Source of the DNA: Gemmatimonadales bacterium
GTDB lineage: Bacteria; Gemmatimonadota; Gemmatimonadetes; Gemmatimonadales; GWC2-71-9
Length of the DNA: 29,993 bases
Reading direction: 5' to 3'
NCBI GenBank assembly: GCA_035249765.1
Contig: DATFGC010000176.1
Location: 1 to 29,993 of the forward strand
Part shown: positions 485-21,566 of the stretch, piece by piece
How the letters are laid out: the number at the start of each line of letters is the position of its first letter
Numbering within the stretch: position 1 is the first letter of the stretch
Translations under genes and position numbers: made by a program
The notes under the pieces: model-generated
What the model saw: the letters and a program-made list of their open reading frames with translations, nothing else
Database searches by the model: none
What the model was told of the DNA's origin: nothing

Positions 485-1108
485 ATGAAGCTGGTCACCA
501 AGTCGCTCGAACGCGGGTTTTTCGCGGTGACCAATCCGATCTCGGAGTGGCTGCTCCGGGCGCACGTGCGGCCCAACACCCTGACCACCGCCGGCGCCCT
601 GCTGGTGGTGATCTCCGCGGTGGCCTACGCATTCGGGTGGATTCGCACCGGAGGCATCCTGCTGCTCGCCTCCGGCGTGGTGGACACCTTCGACGGGCAG
701 GTGGCGCGTCGCGGCGGCATGGTCTCCAAATTCGGGGCGTTCTACGATTCGACCCTCGACCGGGTCGGAGATGGCGCCACCTTCATCGGGATCGCCGCCT
801 ACCTGCTGTACGCGCCCGACGTCGCCTGGCGGGTGGAGACGGCGGTGCTCTGCATGGTCGCGGTGCTGAGCTCGCTGCTGGTCTCCTATGCCCGGGCCCG
901 GGCCGAAGGCCTGGGCATCGACTGCAAGGTGGGGATCGTGCAGCGGGCCGAGCGGCTGCTCGCCATCGGGGTGCCCTCGGTGCTGGTGGGCGCGGGACCC
1001 CGGGGCATCGTGCTCCAGGTCATCGTGGCCCTGCTGGCGGTGCTCTCCACCGTGACCGTGATTCAGCGGTTCGTGTATGTGTATCGGGTGACCCGCGACC
1101 CCGCCTAG
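485..1108 (+). CDS. CDP-alcohol phosphatidyltransferase, probably phosphatidylinositol-phosphate synthase type
   Basis: Family motif DxxDGxxARx8GxxxDxxxD (DTFDGQVARRGGMVSKFGAFYDSTLDR), hydrophobic helices, YARARAEGLG segment, directly upstream of ino1. Confidence 0.85.
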   Translation: MKLVTKSLERGFFAVTNPISEWLLRAHVRPNTLTTAGALLVVISAVAYAFGWIRTGGILLLASGVVDTFDGQVARRGGMVSKFGAFYDSTLDRVGDGATFIGIAAYLLYAPDVAWRVETAVLCMVAVLSSLLVSYARARAEGLGIDCKVGIVQRAERLLAIGVPSVLVGAGPRGIVLQVIVALLAVLSTVTVIQRFVYVYRVTRDPA

Positions 1109-1151
1109 GCGGGTCGCTGCCTCATGGAACTTCGGAAAGGATTCTGACGCA

Positions 1152-2486
1152 ATGGCCGAGACGACTCCCCGCACCATCGCTCCCGCCAAGGGCAAGCTCG
1201 GAGTGCTCTGCGTGGGGCTCGGCGCGGTGGCCTCCACCTTCATCGCCGGGGTGGAGCTGGCGCGCCGGGGCAAGGCGCGCCCGATCGGCTCCCTGACCCA
1301 GCTCGCCACCATTCGGCTGGGCAAGCGCACCGAGAACCGGACCCCCCTGATCCGGGATTTTGTGCCGCTGGCCGGCCTCGGGGATCTGGTCTTCGGCGCG
1401 TGGGATCCGATCCCGGACAATGCCTACGAGTCCTGCCTCAAGTGCGGGGTGCTGGACAAGTACGAGCATGTCGAGCCGATCCGGGAATTCCTCCAGGGCA
1501 TCGTACCGATCCCCGCGGTGTTCGACCAGTACTACGTCAAACGGCTCTCGGGACGGAACCTCAAGCCGGGGAAGTCCAAGCGGGAATGGGCCGAGGCGCT
1601 GCGCCAGGATATCCGGCAATTCAAGCAGGCCAACGGGTGCGACCGGCTGGTCGTGGTGTGGTGCGCTTCGACCGAGATCTTCATTCAGCCCGGCGCCAGC
1701 CATCAGACCCTGGCCGCCTTCGAGCAGGCCATGGACGCCGACGACGTGTCCATCGCCCCCTCGATGCTGTATGCCTGGGCCGCCCTGATGGAAGGGGTGC
1801 CCTTCGCGAACGGGGCGCCCAATCTGACCCTGGACTTCCCTGCGCTGGAGCAGCTCGCCCTCGACCGGCGGGTCGCCATCGGCGGCAAGGACTTCAAAAC
1901 CGGCCAGACCATGCTCAAGACCGTGCTCTCGCCGATGTTCAAGGCGCGGATGCTCGGGGTGGCGGGCTGGTACTCGACCAACATCCTGGGCAACCGGGAC
2001 GGCGAGGTGCTGGACGATCCGGAGAGCTTCAAGACCAAGGAAGAATCCAAGCTCGGCGTCCTGGAGTACATCCTCCAGCCCAAGATGTATCCCGAGCTGT
2101 ACGGCGAGCTTTACCACAAGGTGCGAATCAACTACTACCCTCCGCGGGGCGACAACAAGGAGGGATGGGACAACATCGACATCTTCGGGTGGTGCGGCTA
2201 CCCGATGCAGATCAAAGTGGACTTCCTCTGCCGGGACTCGATCCTCGCGGCGCCCCTGGTGCTCGACCTGGCGCTGTTCTTCGATCTGGCCCAGCGGGCG
2301 GGGTTTTCCGGGGTGCAGGAGTGGCTCTCGTTCTATTTCAAGAGTCCCCAGGTGGGACCGGGACTCTATCCCGAGCACGATCTGTTCATTCAGCATACCA
2401 AGCTCAAGAACACCCTGCGCTACCTGATGGGGGAGGAGCAGATAACCCATCTGGGGGTGGAGTACTATGAGTACGGGAAGGAGTGA
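1152..2486 (+). CDS. ino1: myo-inositol-1-phosphate synthase
   Basis: Rossmann GLGAVA, NGAPN, GKDFKTGQT, NILGNRDG and DSILAAP motifs; 444 aa. Confidence 0.95.
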   Translation: MAETTPRTIAPAKGKLGVLCVGLGAVASTFIAGVELARRGKARPIGSLTQLATIRLGKRTENRTPLIRDFVPLAGLGDLVFGAWDPIPDNAYESCLKCGVLDKYEHVEPIREFLQGIVPIPAVFDQYYVKRLSGRNLKPGKSKREWAEALRQDIRQFKQANGCDRLVVVWCASTEIFIQPGASHQTLAAFEQAMDADDVSIAPSMLYAWAALMEGVPFANGAPNLTLDFPALEQLALDRRVAIGGKDFKTGQTMLKTVLSPMFKARMLGVAGWYSTNILGNRDGEVLDDPESFKTKEESKLGVLEYILQPKMYPELYGELYHKVRINYYPPRGDNKEGWDNIDIFGWCGYPMQIKVDFLCRDSILAAPLVLDLALFFDLAQRAGFSGVQEWLSFYFKSPQVGPGLYPEHDLFIQHTKLKNTLRYLMGEEQITHLGVEYYEYGKE

Positions 2487-2559
2487 GCGGTAAGCGGTGA
2501 GCGGTAAGCGGTGACAGGGATAAAGCCTTCCCGCTCACCGCTCACCGCTCACCGCTCAC
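2483..2559. repeat. Inverted heptamer array (GTRAGCG)x4 ... (CGCTCAC)x4
   Basis: Units at 2483-2510 (the first contains the ino1 TGA) and 2532-2559; same family as 320-380. Confidence 0.9.
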
Positions 2560-2569
2560 CCGACAACGC

Positions 2570-2860
2570 ATGAAGTATTTCCATCGAACCTCCTTGCCCC
2601 CCGACGCCGTGATTCGCCGCGCGGCGGGATTTTTCTCGCCCTCGCTCGCGCCGGTGGAGGAGGGCCCCCGGCGGCGCCGGTTCTCGGGGGCGCTGGGGCA
2701 GCTGGTGGTGCTGGTAGAGCCCGAAGGCGGGCACTATACCCGGGTCACCGTCGAAACCAACCAGCCGGGCGAGAGCGAGCTGGACCGCCGGGCCAAGCGG
2801 TTTCTCGCCGAGGTACACGCCGAGGCCGAGCCGGGCCACGTGGTCCGGGGAGCCTACTGA
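2570..2860 (+). CDS. Hypothetical protein (96 aa)
   Basis: ATG start, typical GC3-rich codon usage, fills the gap after ino1; no family recognised. Confidence 0.7.
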   Translation: MKYFHRTSLPPDAVIRRAAGFFSPSLAPVEEGPRRRRFSGALGQLVVLVEPEGGHYTRVTVETNQPGESELDRRAKRFLAEVHAEAEPGHVVRGAY

Positions 2861-2895: not shown

Positions 2896-2924
2896 TTGCG
2901 GCACTCGTGATGGGTTGATACCCT
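2896..2924 (+). promoter_or_regulatory. sigma70-like promoter upstream of RNA motif copy A
   Basis: TTGCGG (2896-2901) - 17 nt - TACCCT (2919-2924). Confidence 0.5.
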
Positions 2925-2940
2925 GACTCTATCCAATGGC

Positions 2941-3042
2941 GCTCGGGCAACTGGCCCGGGCCGCCTTGGCGGATGGAGGCAGTGGATTCAGTCCGTCGAA
3001 GGCGCGCACGGCGCTCCCCCCGGGAGTGCGGTCGCGCCTTTT
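2941..3042 (+). ncRNA. Candidate structured leader/sRNA motif, copy A
   Basis: P0 2941-2948/2954-2961; P1 GCCUU-GGCGGA / UCCGUC-G-AAGGC (2963-3003); overlapping terminator-like hairpin AAGGCGCG/CGCGCCUU followed by UU (2999-3042). Shares cores with 4835-4930 and 8749-8847. Confidence 0.5.
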
Positions 3043-3084
3043 TGACGTCGCTGCCCAGACCAACTTTTTCTGGAGGATCGCTCC

Positions 3085-3519
3085 ATGCTGAAGCTTACCG
3101 CGCTCGCGGCTCTGGCCGGAGTTTCCCTGGTGGGATTGCCCCTGGTGGGTGACAAGCAGTGGAAGGCCTCGCTCGCCGGGCGCAACGGATCGCCGATCGA
3201 AGGGACCGCCGAAGTGGATGCCAAGTCCGCGGACTCCACCAGGATGGACGTCGAGATCAAGAAGGCCGTCGCGTCCACCAGTTACGCCTGGCACATGCAC
3301 AACGGGAACTGCGCGGCGAACGGATCGGTGGTAGGAGCCATGGACGCTTACCCGATGCTCAAGACCGATGAGAAGGGCTCCGGAGAGATCGAGGTGACTC
3401 TGGCTCTGCCCGCGCCCTCCGCCGGCGAGTATTCGGTGCACGTGCATGCGCCCAGCGCCGATACCGCCGCTGCTGGACAGGCGGTTGCCTGCGGCGATTT
3501 GAAGCCCGCGGAGAAGTAG
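3085..3519 (+). CDS. Secreted Cu/Zn-SOD-like / CHRD-like beta-sandwich protein
   Basis: Signal-peptide-like N-terminus; WHMH-NGNC ... SVHVH ... VACGDL pattern; GGAGG RBS upstream. Confidence 0.75.
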   Translation: MLKLTALAALAGVSLVGLPLVGDKQWKASLAGRNGSPIEGTAEVDAKSADSTRMDVEIKKAVASTSYAWHMHNGNCAANGSVVGAMDAYPMLKTDEKGSGEIEVTLALPAPSAGEYSVHVHAPSADTAAAGQAVACGDLKPAEK

Positions 3520-3656
3520 GAGGGGAAGAGGAGAAGGAGAAGGAGGGAAAAAGATAGGCCCCGCCGACCACGGACCGGGGAGGTCACGTGGACGGCGGTA
3601 GGGCGAGCGCCTCGCGAGGGTAGGGAGCGAGTCGTCGGGCCTATCGAACTACTCTA

Positions 3657-4187
3657 TTACGCCTGCCGGAGAATGGGCCCCTGGTGGAGCCGGACGTCGT
3701 TCGATTCCGCCGGGGCGTCCATGGGCTCATCCAGCCGCCCGAGGGTCTCGATGGTGTTGCGCTCCTCCTGGAGCGAGTCGGCCAGCAGATCCGCAACGGT
3801 GCGCTGTCCCAGCAGCTTGGCATAGGCAATCGCGCGGCTGTAGGTGGCCATCGCGTAGCGGGCGACCCGCTGCGCGCTGGCCACCGTGGCCGCATCCAGG
3901 AAAACCCCGCGCCCACCGCGCCGCGCGGCCCGGTCCGCTTCATCCAGAAAGGACTGGATGCCGGGACAGTAAGCCCCGCGCGGAGGTTTCCCGAGGGCGG
4001 CGAACGCTTCGCCGAGCCGGTCGATCTGGCGCTCGGTTTCCTGGAACTGATCCGACAGGGCGAGGCGCAGGGAGAGCGAGGTGGTCTGCCAGATCAGCTT
4101 GGGCAGCTCGGCGGCGAACTGCCGCTCCGCCCCGTAGATCTCCCGCAACTGATCTTCCAGCAGGTCTTCCATCGTCTCGATCTGCAC
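3657..4187 (-). CDS. DUF892 (YciE/YciF) ferritin-like protein, degenerate metal site
   Basis: GTG start with GGAG RBS; DQLREIYGAERQ...LPK...QETERQIDRL...CPGI...LDAA...AKLLG...LLADSLQEE pattern. Confidence 0.85.
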   Translation of the reverse strand: MQIETMEDLLEDQLREIYGAERQFAAELPKLIWQTTSLSLRLALSDQFQETERQIDRLGEAFAALGKPPRGAYCPGIQSFLDEADRAARRGGRGVFLDAATVASAQRVARYAMATYSRAIAYAKLLGQRTVADLLADSLQEERNTIETLGRLDEPMDAPAESNDVRLHQGPILRQA

Positions 4188-4233
4188 GGTCTCCTGCTCC
4201 TCTCCGGTCGGTGGGTTGCGTCCTGCTATGACT

Positions 4234-4479
4234 TCAGGCGCTGTTACGGCGCCGCTTGTCGTCGAGATACCGGATCTGGGTGGACGGGGCGGTTCGGCCT
4301 CCCCGAACGGTCTTGACCGATGTCAGCCTCAGCTGCCCGTCCTGGTTGGGAAGCACCAGGCGCCGGCGCCAGTCCCCCTTGATCAGCTCCTCCGGGACCA
4401 CCGGCGCTCCAGCATCCCGTACCGGCTCCTTCCGGTCGTTCCCAGTCTCGGCGGGCTGCTGGTCGGGTGGCTTCCGCAT
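4234..4479 (-). CDS. Hypothetical small protein (81 aa)
   Basis: ATG preceded by GAGAGG; starts 9 nt after the stop of the DUF1328-like gene and sits in the same-strand run with DUF892. Confidence 0.5.
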   Translation of the reverse strand: MRKPPDQQPAETGNDRKEPVRDAGAPVVPEELIKGDWRRRLVLPNQDGQLRLTSVKTVRGGRTAPSTQIRYLDDKRRRNSA

Positions 4480-4488
4480 AACCTCTCG

Positions 4489-4668
4489 CTACGACGCCGG
4501 CTTCCGGCCGGTGACCGCTTCGAGGAGAAGGGTCACGCAGAAAACCAGAACCAGCACATAAGCCACGGAGCGGTTGATGTCTCCGAAATCGGCGGCGGCG
4601 CGGCTGAATCCGATCACCGCTGCGACCAAGGCCACGACCAGTGATGCCAGCGCCAGACGAATCAGCAT
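4489..4668 (-). CDS. DUF1328/UPF0391 (YtjA-like) small membrane protein, 59 aa, absent from the ORF track
   Basis: Hand translation: MLIRLALASLVVALVAAVIGFSRAAADFGDINRSVAYVLVLVFCVTLLLEAVTGRKPAS*. Two hydrophobic helices, ALVAAVIGF motif, GGGGGA RBS. Confidence 0.75.
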   Translation of the reverse strand: MLIRLALASLVVALVAAVIGFSRAAADFGDINRSVAYVLVLVFCVTLLLEAVTGRKPAS

Positions 4669-4834
4669 ATTCCCCCCAGAGGGCCCGGTGTCCGATCAGG
4701 ATGGGCCGGCGAAAGTACGAGGGCGCGAAGGACCCCCGGCCTGCAGGAATCCCCTCGCGCCCTCGACTTCCAGAGCCGCTTCGCTCCGGCCGACAGGGCA
4801 ACCCGCACCGCTCTGCGAGCGCCATGTTTGTACG

Positions 4835-4930
4835 AAAAAAGGCGCCACCGCGTCTCAATCGACGGGTAGCGCCTTCGTCTGATGGTTCTGCTGCTCCATC
4901 CGACAAGGCTGACGCCCTGGTTCCGGCGTC
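4835..4930 (-). ncRNA. Candidate structured leader/sRNA motif, copy C
   Basis: On the minus strand: P0 GACGCC/GGCGUC; P1 GCCUU-GUC-G-GAUGG / CCAUC-A-GAC-G-AAGGC; terminator-like AAGGCGCUACC/GGUGGCGCCUU ending in a U6 run. Confidence 0.55.
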
Positions 4931-4940
4931 TGCTCGAATC

Positions 4941-4969
4941 ATTCTACAAACTTGAGTTCCACCACGCAA
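4941..4969 (-). promoter_or_regulatory. sigma70-like promoter for motif copy C / DUF1328 cluster
   Basis: Minus strand TTGCGT (4969-4964) - 17 nt - TAGAAT (4946-4941). Confidence 0.65.
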
Positions 4970-4980
4970 GCCCCCAACTT
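4952..4980 (+). promoter_or_regulatory. sigma70-like promoter of the histidine kinase (probably leaderless)
   Basis: TTGAGT (4952-4957) - 17 nt - CAACTT (4975-4980), 5 nt before ATG 4986; no SD. Confidence 0.45.
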
Positions 4981-4985
4981 CGAGC

Positions 4986-7955
4986 ATGATTCCGCCCGAA
5001 CGAACCCAGGAACGGCGGGAAGTGACCGACATTCGGCCAGTCCCCCCGACTGCGCGCTGGCGGCCGTTCTGGACGGCGAGTGGATGGGCCCTGATCGCCA
5101 TGGGCGGAGCTGCGGTCATCGGGTGGATTCTCACCGTCCGGATCCTGGTCCAGCCCATCGAAACCCGGGCTCCCCTTCGTCCGGCGGCCGCGCTCGGACT
5201 CTTTGCCCTCGGTGTGGCGGCGCTGGCCTTCGATCGGGGACTCCGCCGCACCGCGCTGGTTCTGGCCACCACCGGCGCGGGCATCGGTCTCATCGGTCTC
5301 TTCGAGCTGGTCACCGGCAGCAGTCTTGGCCTCGACGGGCTTCCCCTTCGTCCCGACCTCGAAGCGCTGATTGGGAGGCCTGGTTCGTCTCAGGTGCCGT
5401 TCTCCACTGCCTGGGGGCTTATTCTGGGCGGCGCCGGCATCGTCGCAGTCGTTACCGGTCTCAAGCGGCCCTCCGGCGCCTTCGTCGTCGGCGTCATCGC
5501 ATCCGTCCTCGGCGCGCTCGGGTTTGCCCTGTTGCTGGCCCAGGCGATCGGGTTCTCGCCCGGGATCCAGTTCGGTCCGGTGGTGGGATCGGGCCCGCAG
5601 GCGGCGATCGGCCTCTTGTTGCTCGGCCTCGCGTTGGGATCGTCCGCCTGGACCCGGGACTGGACTCCCGCCACCTACCCCGCGTGGATTCCGCCGGCTG
5701 CGGGACTCGCCAGTCTCACGGCGGTGCTGTTCCTCTGGCGGGCCATGATTCAGGGACAGGATGCCGACGCCCGCACCCTCCTGGCGGCGGCGGCGGAGCG
5801 CGCCGAGACCCGGATCGGGGAGGGCATCAACCTGGTGAACTCCGCCCTTCGGCGGGTGGCCTGGTTCTCCTTTCCCTCGGTGGTCGGCACCGAGGAGTGG
5901 AACCGCTCGGTCCAGACCATGGTCAGCTCGGTGCCGGGGATGAGCGGCATCGCCTGGGTCGACGGCAACGGCAGTCGGGCCCTCCTGGTGCCGGTGCCGG
6001 AAGATTCTCTGACCCTGGTGACGCAGCTCAAGCTTCAGGTGGCGTCGCGCTCACCGCCGGCGCTGAGCCGTCCCGATTCGGTCTGGCATTTTTCGCTGGC
6101 GGATTCGGCCCAGACGCTGGGGATCGCGGTGCCCCGCTGCGATCTCTCGACCTGCGATGGTTTCGTGATCGGACTGATCCGGGGTGACCGGCTGCTCCAG
6201 CCGATCCTGGCGGACACCGTGGACGGCTACCATCGCATGGTCTCCTGGCGAGGCCGGACCATCGTGACATCGGGATTCGGGCCAGCCCGAGGCAGTGAGA
6301 TGGTTCATCGCGGCTTGATGTCGGTGGATGAAATGGCCTGGGAGGTGGTGGTCTGGCCCACCGGTGGAGGCTCTCCCGGTCCGGGGGGAGGTCTCTCCGG
6401 CCTGGTCCTCGCGTTCGGCCTGCTGCTTTCCGGGTTGCTCCCCGTCTCGCTCCAGCTGGGCCGGACGCTCCAGACCAATGCTCGCACCGCCGAGCTGGCC
6501 CGGCTCCAGCTCCTGCTGGGACGCTCGATGGACCGGGCCTGGTCCTGGGAAGTTCCCGCCCGCGCCGACGGCGAGCCCGCGCTCGAGTCCTCCACCCGCG
6601 GACAGGAGCTCCGCAAGGGGCGCTGGACCGAGCTGGTGCACCCCGACGACCGGCGCAGGGTCGAAGCGCTGCTTTCCGCCCATCTCGACGGCTGGAGCCA
6701 CGTCTTCGAGGCGCAGTACCGGATTCAGGACGCCGCCGGCGAGTGGAGCTGGCGGGTCGACCGGGGGCACGTATCCGAGCGGGGGCCCTACGGGACTCCG
6801 CTGCAGATGCTCGGAGTGAGCGGAGACGTCAGCGAACGCCGGCGGGTGGATGAGGAACGGGAACGCAGCGAGCGGCGGTTCCGGGCCATGTTCGACAGTG
6901 CCTATCAGTTCCAGGCGCTGCTCGACCTTGAGTGCCGGATCCTGGAAGCCAATCCCACCGCGCTCGAGCTGCTGCGGAACGAGACCAGCATCGACGCCCT
7001 GCGCGGGGTGGCGTTCTGGGACGCGGGCTGGTGGCCCGGCCCCGACGCCTCGGCCTGGGCCAGGACCGCCTGCGAGGCCGCGAAGTCGGGGCGCATCGTC
7101 AAGCAGGAGCTGGAAATGGCGACCCGCACCGGCCAGCGGGTGGTGATGGATTTCTCGGTCAAGGCGATTCGCGACGCGGAAGGCCGGGTGGCCCAGCTCC
7201 TGGTGGAAGGGCGGGACATTACCGCCCGGCGCCGCGCCGAGGCCGAGCTGCGGGAGGTGGAGACCCTGACCACGATGGGCAGGATCGCGGCCCGGGTGGC
7301 GCACGAGATCAATAATCCGCTGGCCGGCATCCAGAATTCGTTCCTGCTGCTCCGCGACGCGATCCCGACCGACCATCCCCACTATGCCTACGTCGGCGCG
7401 ATTGAGCGGGAGATCCGGCGGATCGCCGACGTCACCCGGCAGCTCTACGAGACCTACCGCCCCGATACCGACGGCACCGGACAGTCCGGCGTCCGCACTC
7501 TGATCGGCGACGCAGTCGCCTTCCTGCAGCAGGTCAACCGTCCCACCAAGGTCCGGATCCACGCCGAGCTCGTGGGAGTCCCCTCGCTGGTCGCGATTCC
7601 CGAGTCGGTGCTCCGGCAATCGGTGTACAACCTGGTCCAGAACGCCGTCGAAGCCTCGCCCCCCGGCGGCCTGGTGACGGTCCGGGCCCACACGGAGAAC
7701 GGCTATTTTGTACTCCGGGTCCGCGACCAGGGCCCCGGTGTGCCGGCCGCCGCGCGCGGCCGGATCTTCGAGCCCTTCGTCACCACCAAGGGACGGGGTG
7801 CCGCGACCGGGGGCATGGGCATAGGATTGTCTCTGGTGCGCCGGTCGGTCGAAGCGATGGGCGGCACCATCGAGATCGAGGACCCGCCCGATGGCGGGGC
7901 CGAATTCGTCATCAGAATCCCCGTCGCTCAGGCGACGAACGGAGGCAACTCGTGA
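4986..7955 (+). CDS. Membrane-bound PAS-domain sensor histidine kinase
   Basis: Multi-TM N-terminus, extracytoplasmic segment, two PAS-like regions (VHPDDR...YRI; LDLECRILEAN), H-box AHEINNPL, N-box NLVQNA, G1 DQGPG, F/G2 FEPFVTTK..GMGIGL. Confidence 0.93.
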   Translation: MIPPERTQERREVTDIRPVPPTARWRPFWTASGWALIAMGGAAVIGWILTVRILVQPIETRAPLRPAAALGLFALGVAALAFDRGLRRTALVLATTGAGIGLIGLFELVTGSSLGLDGLPLRPDLEALIGRPGSSQVPFSTAWGLILGGAGIVAVVTGLKRPSGAFVVGVIASVLGALGFALLLAQAIGFSPGIQFGPVVGSGPQAAIGLLLLGLALGSSAWTRDWTPATYPAWIPPAAGLASLTAVLFLWRAMIQGQDADARTLLAAAAERAETRIGEGINLVNSALRRVAWFSFPSVVGTEEWNRSVQTMVSSVPGMSGIAWVDGNGSRALLVPVPEDSLTLVTQLKLQVASRSPPALSRPDSVWHFSLADSAQTLGIAVPRCDLSTCDGFVIGLIRGDRLLQPILADTVDGYHRMVSWRGRTIVTSGFGPARGSEMVHRGLMSVDEMAWEVVVWPTGGGSPGPGGGLSGLVLAFGLLLSGLLPVSLQLGRTLQTNARTAELARLQLLLGRSMDRAWSWEVPARADGEPALESSTRGQELRKGRWTELVHPDDRRRVEALLSAHLDGWSHVFEAQYRIQDAAGEWSWRVDRGHVSERGPYGTPLQMLGVSGDVSERRRVDEERERSERRFRAMFDSAYQFQALLDLECRILEANPTALELLRNETSIDALRGVAFWDAGWWPGPDASAWARTACEAAKSGRIVKQELEMATRTGQRVVMDFSVKAIRDAEGRVAQLLVEGRDITARRRAEAELREVETLTTMGRIAARVAHEINNPLAGIQNSFLLLRDAIPTDHPHYAYVGAIEREIRRIADVTRQLYETYRPDTDGTGQSGVRTLIGDAVAFLQQVNRPTKVRIHAELVGVPSLVAIPESVLRQSVYNLVQNAVEASPPGGLVTVRAHTENGYFVLRVRDQGPGVPAAARGRIFEPFVTTKGRGAATGGMGIGLSLVRRSVEAMGGTIEIEDPPDGGAEFVIRIPVAQATNGGNS

Positions 7956-8683
7956 GTTCTCGCGGTCGCATATTGCTCGCCGATGATGAAGCCACCTTTC
8001 TGAACTCCACCGCCGAGCTCCTGCGGCGCGAAGGCTACGAAGTCGAGACCGTGTCGGATGGGGCCACCGCCCTGGAGCGCGCCGGAGCCGAGCGGTTCGA
8101 TCTCTTGATTACCGACCTGGAAATGCCCGGGAACTCCGATCTGGAGCTGGTCCGGCGGATCGCCGAGACCAGCGGTGGCCTGCCGGTCATCATCCTCACC
8201 GGTTTTCCGGCGGTGCGTTCCGCAGTGGCCTGCATCGAGCTCCCGGTCGCGGCCTACCTGGTCAAACCGGTGGTGTTTCCCGAGCTGCTCTCCCGGGTGG
8301 ATGCCGCGGTGGCGCGGTTCCGGTCCTACCGTGCGCTGGAGAGCGCCGAGCACCGGCTGCGGGACTGGCGGCGGGAGTTCGAGGGTCTGAGCAAGGTCCA
8401 GCGCGGCCCGCAGGCCGACGGGCCGGCAGTGGACATGTTCCTGTCGCTCACCCTGAGAAACGTGATGGGATCGCTGGTGGACCTGGACCAGCTGGGGCGG
8501 GCGCTCACCGGCCACTCGGTCAAGGAGCATCCCTGCCAGTTGATGAACTGCCCCCGGGGCTCCCAGCTGGAAGAGGCGGTGCGGGAAGTCATCGCGGTGC
8601 TGGAAGAAACCAAGAGCGCATTCAAATCGAAGCGCCTGGGCGAGCTGCGCCACAAGCTTGAGCTTCTGCTGGAGCATGTCTGA
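7952..8683 (+). CDS. Response regulator: receiver domain + unrecognised helical C-terminal domain
   Basis: ILLADDE...LLITDLEMPG...IILTG...YLVKP receiver; GTGA overlap with the kinase stop. Confidence 0.92.
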   Translation: MSSRGRILLADDEATFLNSTAELLRREGYEVETVSDGATALERAGAERFDLLITDLEMPGNSDLELVRRIAETSGGLPVIILTGFPAVRSAVACIELPVAAYLVKPVVFPELLSRVDAAVARFRSYRALESAEHRLRDWRREFEGLSKVQRGPQADGPAVDMFLSLTLRNVMGSLVDLDQLGRALTGHSVKEHPCQLMNCPRGSQLEEAVREVIAVLEETKSAFKSKRLGELRHKLELLLEHV

Positions 8684-8748
8684 AACCGGGCTGTGCAGGC
8701 CGGGGGCAGTGAGGCGTCTTATCGGATTGCCAGAGCAAAAATAGAGTT

Positions 8749-8847
8749 GCTCCCCTGCGGGTGGAGCCACCTTGTCGGACGACGGCCCTGGGCCGCGTGA
8801 GACGAAGGCGCGTCGGTGCTCTCCTGGCGGAGAGCGCTCGCGCCTTT
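8749..8847 (+). ncRNA. Candidate structured leader/sRNA motif, copy B
   Basis: P0 GCUCC/GGAGC; P1 CCUU-GUC ... GAC-G-AAGG (8770-8808); hairpin AAGGCGCG..GUGCUCUCC/GGAGAGCGC..CGCGCCUUU (8805-8847). Confidence 0.45.
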
Positions 8848-9065
8848 GCTGCTGCTGATCACCCGGCGTGGCGATTGCGAGCTCGGTCGTGCTGACGCGA
8901 TCCCCGCCGTGCTTCAATAGATGCTGTCGTCTCTGGACCAATCCGCCCTTCGCCGCGATCCCGAGCTGTCGCGCCGGAGGGCGGATTTGGCATGGCTCCT
9001 TGACTCCGGGCCCCGGCGGATAAATCTTTACCCGCTTTCGAGTTACGCTCTCGAACCCCGGCCCG

Positions 9066-10115
9066 ATGACCACGACCGCAGAGCGCCCGGCCCCCCCGAT
9101 TCCCGCCGGGCTCACCCGGGACCAGCTGATCGAGCTCTATTACTTCATGCGGCTGACCCGGTCGCTGGAGGAGAAGCTGGTCAATCTCTACCGGCAGACC
9201 AAAGTGGTCGGGGGACTGTTCCGCTCGCTGGGGCAGGAGGCCGACGCAGTGGGAAGCGCGTACGCGCTGGACCGCTCCCAGGGGGACATCCTCTCCCCCC
9301 TGATCCGGAACCTCGGCTCCATGCTGGTGCAGGGAGCCACGCCGCTCGAGGTGCTGCGGCAGTATATGGCCAAGGCGGAGAGTCCGACCCGGGGCCGCGA
9401 GCTGAACATCCATTTCAACGACCTGGAGCGCGGTTTCCTGGGGCAGATCTCCCACCTGGGCGACATGGTTCCCGTCATGGCGGGGGTCACCCTGAGCTTC
9501 AAGATGCGGCGGCAGCGCCGGGTGGGTCTGGTGTACGTGGGCGACGGGGCCATGAGCACCGGGGCGTTCCACGAAGGGATCAACTTCGCGGCGGTGCAGC
9601 GGCTCCCGCTGGTGGTGATCGCGGAAAACAACGGCTACGCCTACTCCACCCCGCTGTTCCGGCAGACCGCGGTCGGCCAGCTGGTGGAAAAGGCCGCCGG
9701 CTACGGAGTGCGCGGAGAGCAGGCCGACGGCAACGACGTGCTGGCGGTGTACCAGGTGACCCGGGCCGCAGTGGAGCGGGCCCGGGCGGGCGAAGGCGTC
9801 ACCCTGATCGAGTTGCTTACCTACCGGCGCAAGGGACACGCGGAGCACGACAACCAGTCCTACGTCAGCCCGGAAGAGCTCACGGCCTGGGCCGCCAAGG
9901 ATCCGATCGACCGCTACCTGCGCCAGCTCACCGAATCGGGCTGGGCCACGCCCGACGAGCTTTCCGCCATCGACCAGCGGATTGCCGCGGAGATCGACGC
10001 CGCGGTCGCGCGGTGTGAGAACGAGCCGATGCCGGAGCCCGGCACCGCGCTCGATGGGGTGCTGGTGACGCCCTCGAGGGCCGAGCTCGAGTGGTACCGG
10101 AGGCTCGATGCCTGA
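9066..10115 (+). CDS. 2-oxoacid (pyruvate/branched-chain) dehydrogenase E1 alpha
   Basis: TPP motif GDGA...ENN, YRRKGHAEHD loop; substrate cannot be decided from sequence. Confidence 0.92.
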   Translation: MTTTAERPAPPIPAGLTRDQLIELYYFMRLTRSLEEKLVNLYRQTKVVGGLFRSLGQEADAVGSAYALDRSQGDILSPLIRNLGSMLVQGATPLEVLRQYMAKAESPTRGRELNIHFNDLERGFLGQISHLGDMVPVMAGVTLSFKMRRQRRVGLVYVGDGAMSTGAFHEGINFAAVQRLPLVVIAENNGYAYSTPLFRQTAVGQLVEKAAGYGVRGEQADGNDVLAVYQVTRAAVERARAGEGVTLIELLTYRRKGHAEHDNQSYVSPEELTAWAAKDPIDRYLRQLTESGWATPDELSAIDQRIAAEIDAAVARCENEPMPEPGTALDGVLVTPSRAELEWYRRLDA

Positions 10116-11167: not shown

Positions 11168-12559
11168 ATGGCAAAGATCGACGTCCCCATGCCCCAGATG
11201 GGCGAGTCCATCGCCGAGGGCACCCTGTCCAAGTGGCTCAAAAAGGTGGGCGACCCGGTCAAGCGCGACGAGCCGATCTTCGAGATCTCCACCGACAAGG
11301 TGGACGCCGAGATCCCCGCGCCCGCGGCCGGTGTGCTGGCCGAGATCCTGGTTCAGGAAGGGCAAACCGTAGCGGTCCAGACGGTGGTCGCCCGGCTGGA
11401 GACCGACGCGGCGGCGCAGCCTTCAGCCGTCAGCCCTCAGGCCCCCCCCGAGCGGAGCGAGGGGCCGTCCAGCCGTCCAGCCGTCAGTCCGCAGCCTGCG
11501 GCTGCGAGCCCTCAGCCATCAGCCGTGAGCCCTCGGCCGGCAGCCGTCAGCCCTCAGCCATCAGCAATCAGTCAAAAACCGGCGCCACCGTCCCCAGTCC
11601 CCAGTCCCCAGTCCCCAGCCCCCAGCTCACTGGAGGAGCGCCTCCGCACCAAGTCCAGCCCGCTGGTCCGCAAGATCGCCGCGGAGCACAACCTCGACAT
11701 CACCGGCATTCCGGGATCGGGCCTCGCCGGGAGGGTCACCAAGAACGACGTCCTGTCGTTCCTCGAAGCCGGGCCGAAATCCCCGGCCCCCAGTCCCCAA
11801 CCCCCCAGCCCCGACGGTGTCCGCGTCGTCGCCGGTCCCGTGGTCGAGCCGTGGGAAGGCGACCGGGTCGAGCCCTGGTCGCGGATCCGCAAGCTGACCG
11901 CCGATCACATGATCATGTCGCGCCGGGTCTCGGCGCACGTGTACAGCCTGATCGAGGTGGATTATACCCGGGTCGCCGGGGTCCGCGGCCGCCAGAAGGC
12001 GGCCTACGCCGAGCGGGGGGTCAATCTGACCTTCCTGGCATTCATCGCGTCGGCGGTCGCCCGGAATCTCCGCAAGCATCCGGTCGTGAATGCCTGCGTC
12101 ATGGGCGAGAGCACCATCTACCGCCGCGATGTCAATCTCGGCATCGCGGTGGCGCTCGACTGGGGCCTGATCGTGCCGGTGATCCGGCACGCCGACGAGC
12201 TGAACCTGCTCGGCACCGCCCGGGCGATCAACGACCTGGCGGAGCGGGCCCGCGCCAAGAAGCTCTCTCCCGATGAAGTGCAGAAGGGCACCTTCACGAT
12301 CACCAACCCCGGAGTCTTCGGGACCCTGGTCGGACTGCCGATTCTCAATCAACCCCAGGCTGCCATTCTCGCGGTGGGGGCGATCGTCAAACGCCCTGCG
12401 GTGGTGCAGGCGGCCGACGGCAGCGACAGCATCGCGATCCGGACGATGGGAACCCTGGCGATGTCGTTCGATCACCGGATCGTGGATGGGGCCGACGCCG
12501 ATCGCTTTCTCGCCGATCTGCGCAAGACACTGGAGGAGTTTCCGGAAGACGCGGGGTAA
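11168..12559 (+). CDS. Dihydrolipoamide acyltransferase E2 (one lipoyl domain)
   Basis: Start taken at ATG 11168 (MAKIDVPMPQMGES). Lipoyl motif STDKV, E3-binding SPLVRKIA..GSG..GRVTKND, catalytic FDHRIVDG. Confidence 0.93.
   Translation: MAKIDVPMPQMGESIAEGTLSKWLKKVGDPVKRDEPIFEISTDKVDAEIPAPAAGVLAEILVQEGQTVAVQTVVARLETDAAAQPSAVSPQAPPERSEGPSSRPAVSPQPAAASPQPSAVSPRPAAVSPQPSAISQKPAPPSPVPSPQSPAPSSLEERLRTKSSPLVRKIAAEHNLDITGIPGSGLAGRVTKNDVLSFLEAGPKSPAPSPQPPSPDGVRVVAGPVVEPWEGDRVEPWSRIRKLTADHMIMSRRVSAHVYSLIEVDYTRVAGVRGRQKAAYAERGVNLTFLAFIASAVARNLRKHPVVNACVMGESTIYRRDVNLGIAVALDWGLIVPVIRHADELNLLGTARAINDLAERARAKKLSPDEVQKGTFTITNPGVFGTLVGLPILNQPQAAILAVGAIVKRPAVVQAADGSDSIAIRTMGTLAMSFDHRIVDGADADRFLADLRKTLEEFPEDAG
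11417..11626 (+). repeat. In-frame heptamer tandem repeats in the E2 linker (CAGCCNT and CCCCAGT)
   Basis: cagcctt cagccgt cagccct...cagccat cagcaat at 11417-11576; ccccagt x3 + ccccagc x2 at 11592-11626; a further degenerate block at 11781-11812. Confidence 0.85.
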
Positions 12560-16074: not shown

Positions 16075-16101
16075 GTTGAAGGGCGGCTGGACGGTAGGTT
16101 T

Positions 16102-16132
16102 GCTGAAGGCTGATGGCTGACGGCTGACGGCT
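16102..16132. repeat. Heptamer tandem array (GCTGANG)x4
   Basis: gctgaag gctgatg gctgacg gctgacg gct; the reverse complement is the same family as the E2-linker heptamer. Confidence 0.8.

Positions 16133-21477: not shown

Positions 21478-21566
<89 letters not shown>

Follow-up and report, generated by a model that had tools for sequence, protein, structure and literature searches.

In the ribonucleic antiterminator (RAT), a protein holds a single, internally irregular hairpin, which shares sequence with the 5' arm of a terminator. ANTAR is the only antiterminator output domain that the consulted reviews describe for response regulators (PMC12471899, PMC12591593), and its RNA targets are two 3-bp hairpins with hexanucleotide loops that carry A at position 1 and G at position 4 (PMC3369931). 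Here we describe four copies of a leader RNA in a stretch of 29,993 nucleotides (nt) from a Gemmatimonadales genome (the window, by which we mean the whole stretch analysed), in which leader copies bracket the genes for a PAS-domain sensor kinase (4986-7955) and a response regulator (7952-8683). The leader RNA family is real and apparently undescribed; comparison between genomes shows that it has two mutually exclusive predicted folds, is placed between promoters and genes, and is associated with this regulator. On the sequence evidence, the neighbouring response regulator is the probable, and new, cognate RNA-binding protein of the leader. We propose that the leader is probably a cis-acting transcription attenuator, and that the phosphorylated regulator binds its hairpin P1 and thereby antiterminates. 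The leaders, their promoters and the two-component genes are as follows.

2941-3043, plus strand: leader A, with hairpin P0 at 2941-2961, the P1 antiterminator at 2964-3002 and the terminator at 2999-3043 (covariance model R1, 68.6 bits; folds)
8749-8848, plus strand: leader B, with P0 at 8749-8767, P1 at 8770-8808 and the terminator at 8805-8848, ending in U3 (69.5 bits)
4835-4930, minus strand: leader C, with P0 at 4930-4911, P1 at 4908-4872 and the terminator at 4875-4835, with U6 (65.2 bits)
4716-4822, minus strand: leader D, with P1 at 4798-4760 and a terminator hairpin at 4763-4720 with a weak U-tail (R1 46.8 bits, R2 64 bits; folds)
2896-2924, plus strand: sigma70-like promoter of leader A, TTGCGG-17-TACCCT (hexamers at 2896-2901 and 2919-2924, from the sequence)
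4941-4969, minus strand: sigma70-like promoter of leaders C and D, TTGCGT-17-TAGAAT (hexamers at 4969-4964 and 4946-4941, from the sequence)
4986-7955, plus strand: membrane PAS-PAS-HisKA-HATPase sensor kinase, presumed partner of the regulator (Pfam; its gene overlaps the regulator gene by 4 nt)
7952-8683, plus strand: response regulator and proposed RNA-binding antiterminator, with a receiver domain (D55), a long helix at residues 109-149 and an all-helical output domain at about residues 150-243 that contains Cys-x4-Cys-Pro
8609-8632, plus strand: TKSAFKSK loop of the regulator, residues 220-227, between its last two helices; candidate RNA contact (conservation, predicted structure)

The original prediction had described copies A, B and C with two shared cores, and a strict two-core pattern has no matches beyond these three in the whole genome (3.58 Mb, 69% complete). 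All three are real, and a fourth, copy D, had been missed; it stands in tandem behind copy C, and its covariance model match spans 4714-4830 on the minus strand. By covariance model, four more copies lie on other contigs of the same genome: a DUF1328 gene follows the two on C253, csbD the one on C434, and the gene for a probable secreted protein the one on C377. In the closest named record, copies B, C and D are present as well, and its regulator domain shares 99% identity with that of the window. A pattern scan of GTDB yielded 54 homologues with the full architecture, nearly all of them from Gemmatimonadota plus one from Armatimonadia; about half of the first matches, which lay in unrelated taxa and had no terminator, were dropped as chance matches, and the relaxed core pattern is by itself unspecific (15 real matches vs 6 in a reversed control). 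Model R1 was built from 50 sequences, and about 190 homologues with a covarying irregular hairpin P1 were assembled. Genome searches scored top candidates only, so copy numbers are lower bounds. The motif had been called unrecognised, and this held: Rfam (E<=1; the window and 11 homologue loci) gave no match for copies or homologues, with only tRNAs and, by chance, miRNA, P26 and plastid models matching, and no description of the RNA or of the protein motif was found in a literature search confined to papers outside subscription.

The homologue search and covariance model that had been suggested as a check gave strong covariation and further homologues between promoters and genes. None of the sequence-level outcomes that the original prediction had named as counting against it was observed. 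Of the paired cells in 144 distinct homologues, 91% are standard pairs, and both partners have changed in 15 of the 19 pairs; a second alignment gave similar values. Two-sided changes occur in 12 of the 15 pairs of P1 and in 3-4 of the 4 inner terminator pairs, with a covariation score reached by none of 500 shuffles and by no slid register. The structure had been used to fit these alignments, but the first alignment, which had not been fitted, also beat the controls, both in paired cells and in covariation score. Copies A, C and B have folding z-scores of -3.95, -5.64 and -4.12 against dinucleotide shuffles. P0 is a hairpin of free sequence that lies 0-3 nt ahead of P1 in 134 of the 144 and has variable loops of 3-11 nt; P1 is an irregular helix of about 15 pairs with a conserved stem and a variable loop. 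Nearly invariant positions are concentrated in the lower part of P1, where they comprise CCUU/AAGG with the bulged G, one C-G pair and one G.A pair; the pair beside them is mismatched in one third of copies. We note that the apical hairpin of P1 is extended by about 45 nt in L204 (8447-8603), L213, L231 and L234, from Pirellulales/Planctomycetaceae, where genes for LuxR-type regulators follow; these copies show that the P1 loop can vary freely. A DNA-level repeat, a small mobile element or a palindromic DNA-binding site would fit the clustering of copies in islands and in both orientations, but the orientation follows the downstream gene, the covariation tolerates G.U pairs, a U-tract is present, identity between copies is low outside the core, and no terminal repeats were seen. 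We give this explanation almost no credence.

The strand AAGG is shared by P1 and the terminator. Each of its four positions pairs with the 5' arm of P1 in 190-194 of 194 copies and with the 3' arm of the terminator in 187-193 of 194, and three-way compensated variants occur (CCCU/AGGG/CCCU, which is that of copy D, CCUG/CAGG/CCUG and CCUC/GAGG/CCUC). When copies A, B and C are cut before the last hairpin they fold into P1, with CCUU pairing with AAGG across the bulged G, and at full length AAGG shifts into the terminator; the competition that had been suspected from three copies is thereby borne out. The terminator is the minimum free energy fold in 189 of 191 copies, with a median gap of 6.2 kcal/mol, so the default state should be OFF, and something must then hold the leader open. 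In Armatimonadota, three copies that follow the regulator gene have no terminator (L191 8421-8503, L192 7055-7141 and L194 7214-7329). In these, P1 covers a ribosome-binding-site-like AAGGGAG just ahead of the ATG of a FliM-like open reading frame (ORF), which suggests that the same hairpin can gate translation.

Promoter hexamers of copies A and C had been proposed from the sequence, and they lie where they were placed. A -35/-10-like pair is found within 100 nt upstream of 62 of the 144 homologues, vs a mean of 4.2 (maximum 10) in mononucleotide shuffles, and on this basis the transcript start is placed near P0. A strict promoter and terminator scan of the window listed neither these hexamers nor the leader terminators, as its rules are too strict for bulged stems and for this promoter type. 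Leaders of Gemmatimonadota have a sigma70-like promoter upstream and genes for CsbD, DUF1328 and DUF892 proteins and kinases downstream. Counted with a heuristic ORF picker and over redundant kin, the products of the next gene include CsbD or DUF1328 (50 cases), sensor kinases (18), DUF892 (13), sigma54-type regulators (9) and outer-membrane beta-barrel proteins (8). A CRP/FNR-like box, TGTGA-N6-NCAC, lies about 85 nt upstream of P1 in 15 of the 144 leaders (L008, L033, L036, L085 and L111 among them), abutting the -35 hexamer in a class II-like position, and suggests a second input at the level of initiation. An AUAGA(U) motif, often in CUGCAGUCAUAGAU, occurs 3-103 nt past the terminator in 24 of the 144 leaders, at 8908-8925 (plus strand) in the window and at 23 homologue loci, e.g. 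L008, L050 and L029.

Another possibility is that the terminated transcripts of about 105 nt are themselves the product, as paralogous small RNAs or as decoys that titrate the regulator or pair with mRNAs. They have their own promoter and terminator, and behind copy B and several copies of Gemmatimonadaceae no convincing ORF follows; these leaders may gate a small non-coding RNA. Most copies, however, stand shortly ahead of same-strand genes of recurring families, the bases that they conserve lie paired within the helix competing with the terminator, and in the terminator-less copies of Armatimonadota P1 lies over the ribosome-binding site. We therefore regard small RNAs or decoys as very improbable.

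The regulator supplies a candidate for what holds the leader open. Comparison of its C-terminal half with Pfam, NCBIfam and PDB sequences gave no match, whether to a helix-turn-helix or to an enzyme family. In a structure predicted from a diverse alignment (pLDDT 90), the long helix is followed by a second long helix, the Cys-x4-Cys-Pro segment and a final helix-loop-helix that carries the TKSAFKSK loop. Across 104 homologues this loop, R233 and both cysteines are the most conserved positions of the output domain (T220 94%, K221 92%, F224 97%, K225 88%, S226 99%, R233 96%), and D55 is kept in 84%. The predicted homodimer scored 0.20 and was used neither for nor against the proposal. After clustering at 50%, the output domain has 531 relatives. 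Their records bear the labels Planctomycetota, Armatimonadota, Verrucomicrobiota, Ignavibacteria, Zixibacteria and others, and some of these labels on metagenome-assembled genomes may be wrong. One protein of 1741 amino acids (P0204) has seven stretches that resemble the middle of the output domain (query residues 30-65). G171 (C42 5247-7525), like 11 further genomes of its planctomycete order, has two regulator paralogues 1-3 kb apart; one scores about 130 bits and is near the profile, whereas the other scores 66-90 bits and is diverged.

RNA and regulator are found, and are missing, together. Among 40 relatives, 17 have both, 21 have neither and two, with fragmented assemblies, have the RNA only (38 of 40 agree); five genomes of the window's own genus have neither. 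In 140 genomes of the phylum, each at least 90% complete, both are present in 13 and neither in 123, and four are discordant, so that 136 agree, or 138 after inspection. In one discordant genome, G105, the regulator is diverged and so is the element behind it, in which CUCG/CGAG/CUCG replaces CCUU/AAGG/CCUU and still competes with the terminator; the RNA match in another, G142, is a bare terminator and a false hit. A pattern for this variant matched no more often than background elsewhere, the copy beside the G105 regulator excepted. In G043 the TKSAFKSK motif of the regulator has decayed, and no element was found. RNA copies on other contigs, which number up to 13 per genome, are likewise not found where the regulator is missing. 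In one relative, an interruption splits the regulator match in two (L171 8001-8512; G011:C37 18918-19444); this genome keeps 10 RNA copies.

The association extends to other groups, in which regulator loci were found by a DNA pattern for the motif. A model trained only on Gemmatimonadota and the one Armatimonadia copy matched 40 of 65 such loci. A refined model, trained partly on those 40 matches, located same-strand RNA immediately behind the regulator gene in 39 cases and immediately ahead of it in seven (41 of 65 loci overall), and these loci are mostly from Planctomycetota, Armatimonadota and other phyla. Leader B, which starts 65 nt past the regulator stop codon, thus occupies a position kept across phyla (39 of 65 distant loci). 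In one planctomycete order nine genomes have both, 66 neither, five the regulator only and one the RNA only, and the genes behind the RNA encode HPt-like, CheW, HAMP/MCP-like, LuxR-type or FliM-like proteins, or the regulator itself.

The original prediction had left open an attenuator or antiterminator, a riboswitch-like element and a family of paralogous small RNAs. The first of these gains from the covariation, the dual pairing and the promoter-gene placement; the other two become less likely, as the occurrence of the RNA follows that of a single kind of response regulator, both between genomes and between phyla. As a small-molecule riboswitch, P1 would bind a ligand, possibly a second messenger or a metal, that depends on the two-component system or is made by the output domain. 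The layout of an aptamer plus terminator, the tandem copies C and D, the conserved non-canonical positions and a multi-copy regulon of stress and signalling genes, as for cyclic di-GMP (c-di-GMP) riboswitches, would all fit. Like the c-di-GMP-I and c-di-GMP-II riboswitches and the yjbJ motif, the family is a leader with a terminator ahead of stress or signalling genes. The yjbJ motif is a riboswitch candidate upstream of a csbD-like gene, and is confined to Streptococcus, unlike the RNA described here (PMC11109978); the consulted portions of the text and supplement of that 50-genome screen, which included Gemmatimonas aurantiaca, describe no motif of the present kind (PMC11109978). The family also differs from the second-messenger riboswitch classes in having no Rfam match. 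Moreover, only about 14 nucleotides are nearly invariant, in one helix and with no multi-helix pocket, the helical output domain matches no enzyme family, and the RNA depends strictly on one regulator family. The genes downstream (general stress, kinases, regulators, chemotaxis, HPt) have no common metabolic theme that would point to a ligand. We consider a riboswitch quite improbable.

Our preferred model, which we consider probable, is attenuation controlled by the regulator. By sequence comparison, transcripts would begin some 30-40 nt ahead of P1 and adopt one of two folds, P1 or a terminator that captures the AAGG of P1, and, with the terminator fold about 6 kcal/mol more stable, the default would be OFF. 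The sensor kinase would phosphorylate the receiver at D55, and the activated regulator would bind the conserved P1 stem (C-G, G.A, the mismatch-tolerant pair, the bulged G and CCUU/AAGG) through its basic TKSAFKSK helix-loop-helix. With AAGG held in P1 the terminator would be blocked, allowing read-through. In Gemmatimonadota the output would be a dispersed general-stress regulon, in many cases with the kinase-regulator operon among its members; similar sensor kinases of relatives have a leader directly upstream, and leaders ahead of the regulator or its kinase are as autoregulation predicts. In other phyla the output would be a local module gating the next signalling gene or, in some Armatimonadota, the regulator itself.

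Several observations weigh against this model. G149 (97% complete, three contigs) has two elements and no regulator and is a true exception, and G185 has one element and no regulator. There are also regulators without the RNA (20 of the 65 distant loci have no detectable element, and two regulator-bearing genomes searched whole gave none), so the domain may also serve other purposes; whole-genome searches of three distant genomes located the RNA nowhere but next to the regulator. RNA and regulator often share one island, and part of their co-occurrence is therefore linkage; as linkage and shared ancestry inflate the counts over non-independent kin, these are descriptive, and Fisher tests on them overstate the association. 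Leader B has no clear target in the window, where pdhA begins at 9066, and the U-tails of some terminators, those of copies B and D among them, are weak. Binding, transcription and termination in this system are steps that we infer from sequence. A rival explanation is an indirect link, in which the leader is an attenuator of the same regulon bound by another protein, and the regulator acts via a partner or on promoter DNA. Co-occurrence does not demonstrate contact, about one third of distant regulator loci are without the RNA, the CRP/FNR-like box lies upstream of some leaders, and G149 retains the RNA without the regulator. Against this, the regulator is the only neighbour of the RNA seen in all groups and phyla examined (no systematic search for another was made), whereas the genes downstream differ completely; the output domain has no helix-turn-helix match; and the motif was lost with the RNA in G043 and diverged with it in G105. 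An indirect link is, in our judgement, unlikely.

If the regulator does bind P1, the system would work like ANTAR antitermination without being a member of that family. As with EutV/EutW of Enterococcus faecalis, which together with PdtaR, AmiR and NasR were the ANTAR response regulators compared (PMC3369931, PMC12591593), a hairpin overlaps and excludes an intrinsic terminator, here on the evidence of folds and pairing. The RNA differs in conserving a long irregular stem with variable loops, and the hexanucleotide loops of ANTAR targets are not seen in it; the output domain differs in its length of about 95-120 amino acids, its cysteine pair and TKSAFKSK. Among the families shown, ANTAR (PF03861) appeared for none of 75 output domains, nor for the window protein, and hhalign of the output domain against the ANTAR domain gave a probability of 0.1%. 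PF03861 was not found in the window's own genome (69% complete), and of five element-bearing genomes tested, four gave no ANTAR match. The regulator model is, like EutV, all-helical behind a long helix, but fold searches are dominated by the receiver domain, and EutV tops the list through receiver and long helix only, tied with receiver-only matches. In its RNA the system is closer in spirit to the RAT hairpin than to the ANTAR target. P1 overlaps the 5' arm of the terminator as in the RATs of BglG, SacY and LicT (PMC12591593), with the hold by a protein being predicted here; the candidate protein is a receiver-domain regulator and not one controlled through the phosphotransferase system and its regulation domain (PTS/PRD). 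CAT_RBD (PF03123) was found in none of five element-bearing genomes, and four control genomes gave matches. To our knowledge the leader sequence does not match RAT.

The matched pair is absent from the libraries searched: both the RNA family and the protein domain are new, and in single genomes the two have diverged or been lost together. We suggest, tentatively, that it could be an independent second class of phosphorylation-controlled RNA-binding antiterminator, in which an uncatalogued, possibly metal-binding helical domain reads an RNA stem and not loops, spread over several little-studied phyla and acting as a general-stress master switch in part of the Gemmatimonadota. This would be a second, non-ANTAR route by which two-component systems control genes via RNA. 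Should binding be confirmed, two-component control through antitermination would have arisen at least twice, and the gating of general-stress genes (CsbD, DUF1328, DUF892) in part of an abundant, poorly cultured soil phylum would be explained. As the parts are small, the proposal is testable in Escherichia coli or in vitro, and the system could yield an orthogonal phosphorylation-controlled RNA switch.

The genes behind leaders A, C and D in the window are as follows.

3085-3519, plus strand: target of leader A, a 144-amino-acid protein with a hydrophobic N-terminus, likely secreted (weak Cu/Zn superoxide dismutase-like match, Sod_Cu E=0.059 only)
4489-4668, minus strand: DUF1328-like small membrane protein, first gene behind leaders C and D (Pfam E=0.0039, under the curated cut-off; clusters with clear DUF1328 proteins)
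4234-4479, minus strand: 81-amino-acid ORF of no known family, probably co-transcribed (ORF list, Pfam; a homologue lies behind the element in L145)
3657-4172, minus strand: DUF892 ferritin-like stress protein, probably in the same operon as the DUF1328-like gene (Pfam E=2.4e-31)

Homologues of the 144-amino-acid protein also sit behind the element in other genomes. Soil metatranscriptome contigs of relatives match small shares of the window; they cover what lies behind A and C/D, and one contig runs from D into the genes that follow. As such contigs reveal neither strand, ends nor level, they were not counted as support. Upstream of leader A (485-2860, plus strand) lie a CDP-alcohol phosphatidyltransferase-like gene, an inositol-1-phosphate-synthase-like gene and a 96-amino-acid ORF with no Pfam match, the names resting on sequence resemblance. 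Elsewhere in the window there are short tandem arrays of 7-mers (GGTGAGC-like and CAGCCGT/CCCCAGT-like) at 317-394, 2475-2562, 11478-11623 and 16100-16132, several of which form inverted pairs between or within genes, and a tRNA gene with a long variable arm lies at 21483-21566 on the minus strand (Rfam, 47.9 bits).
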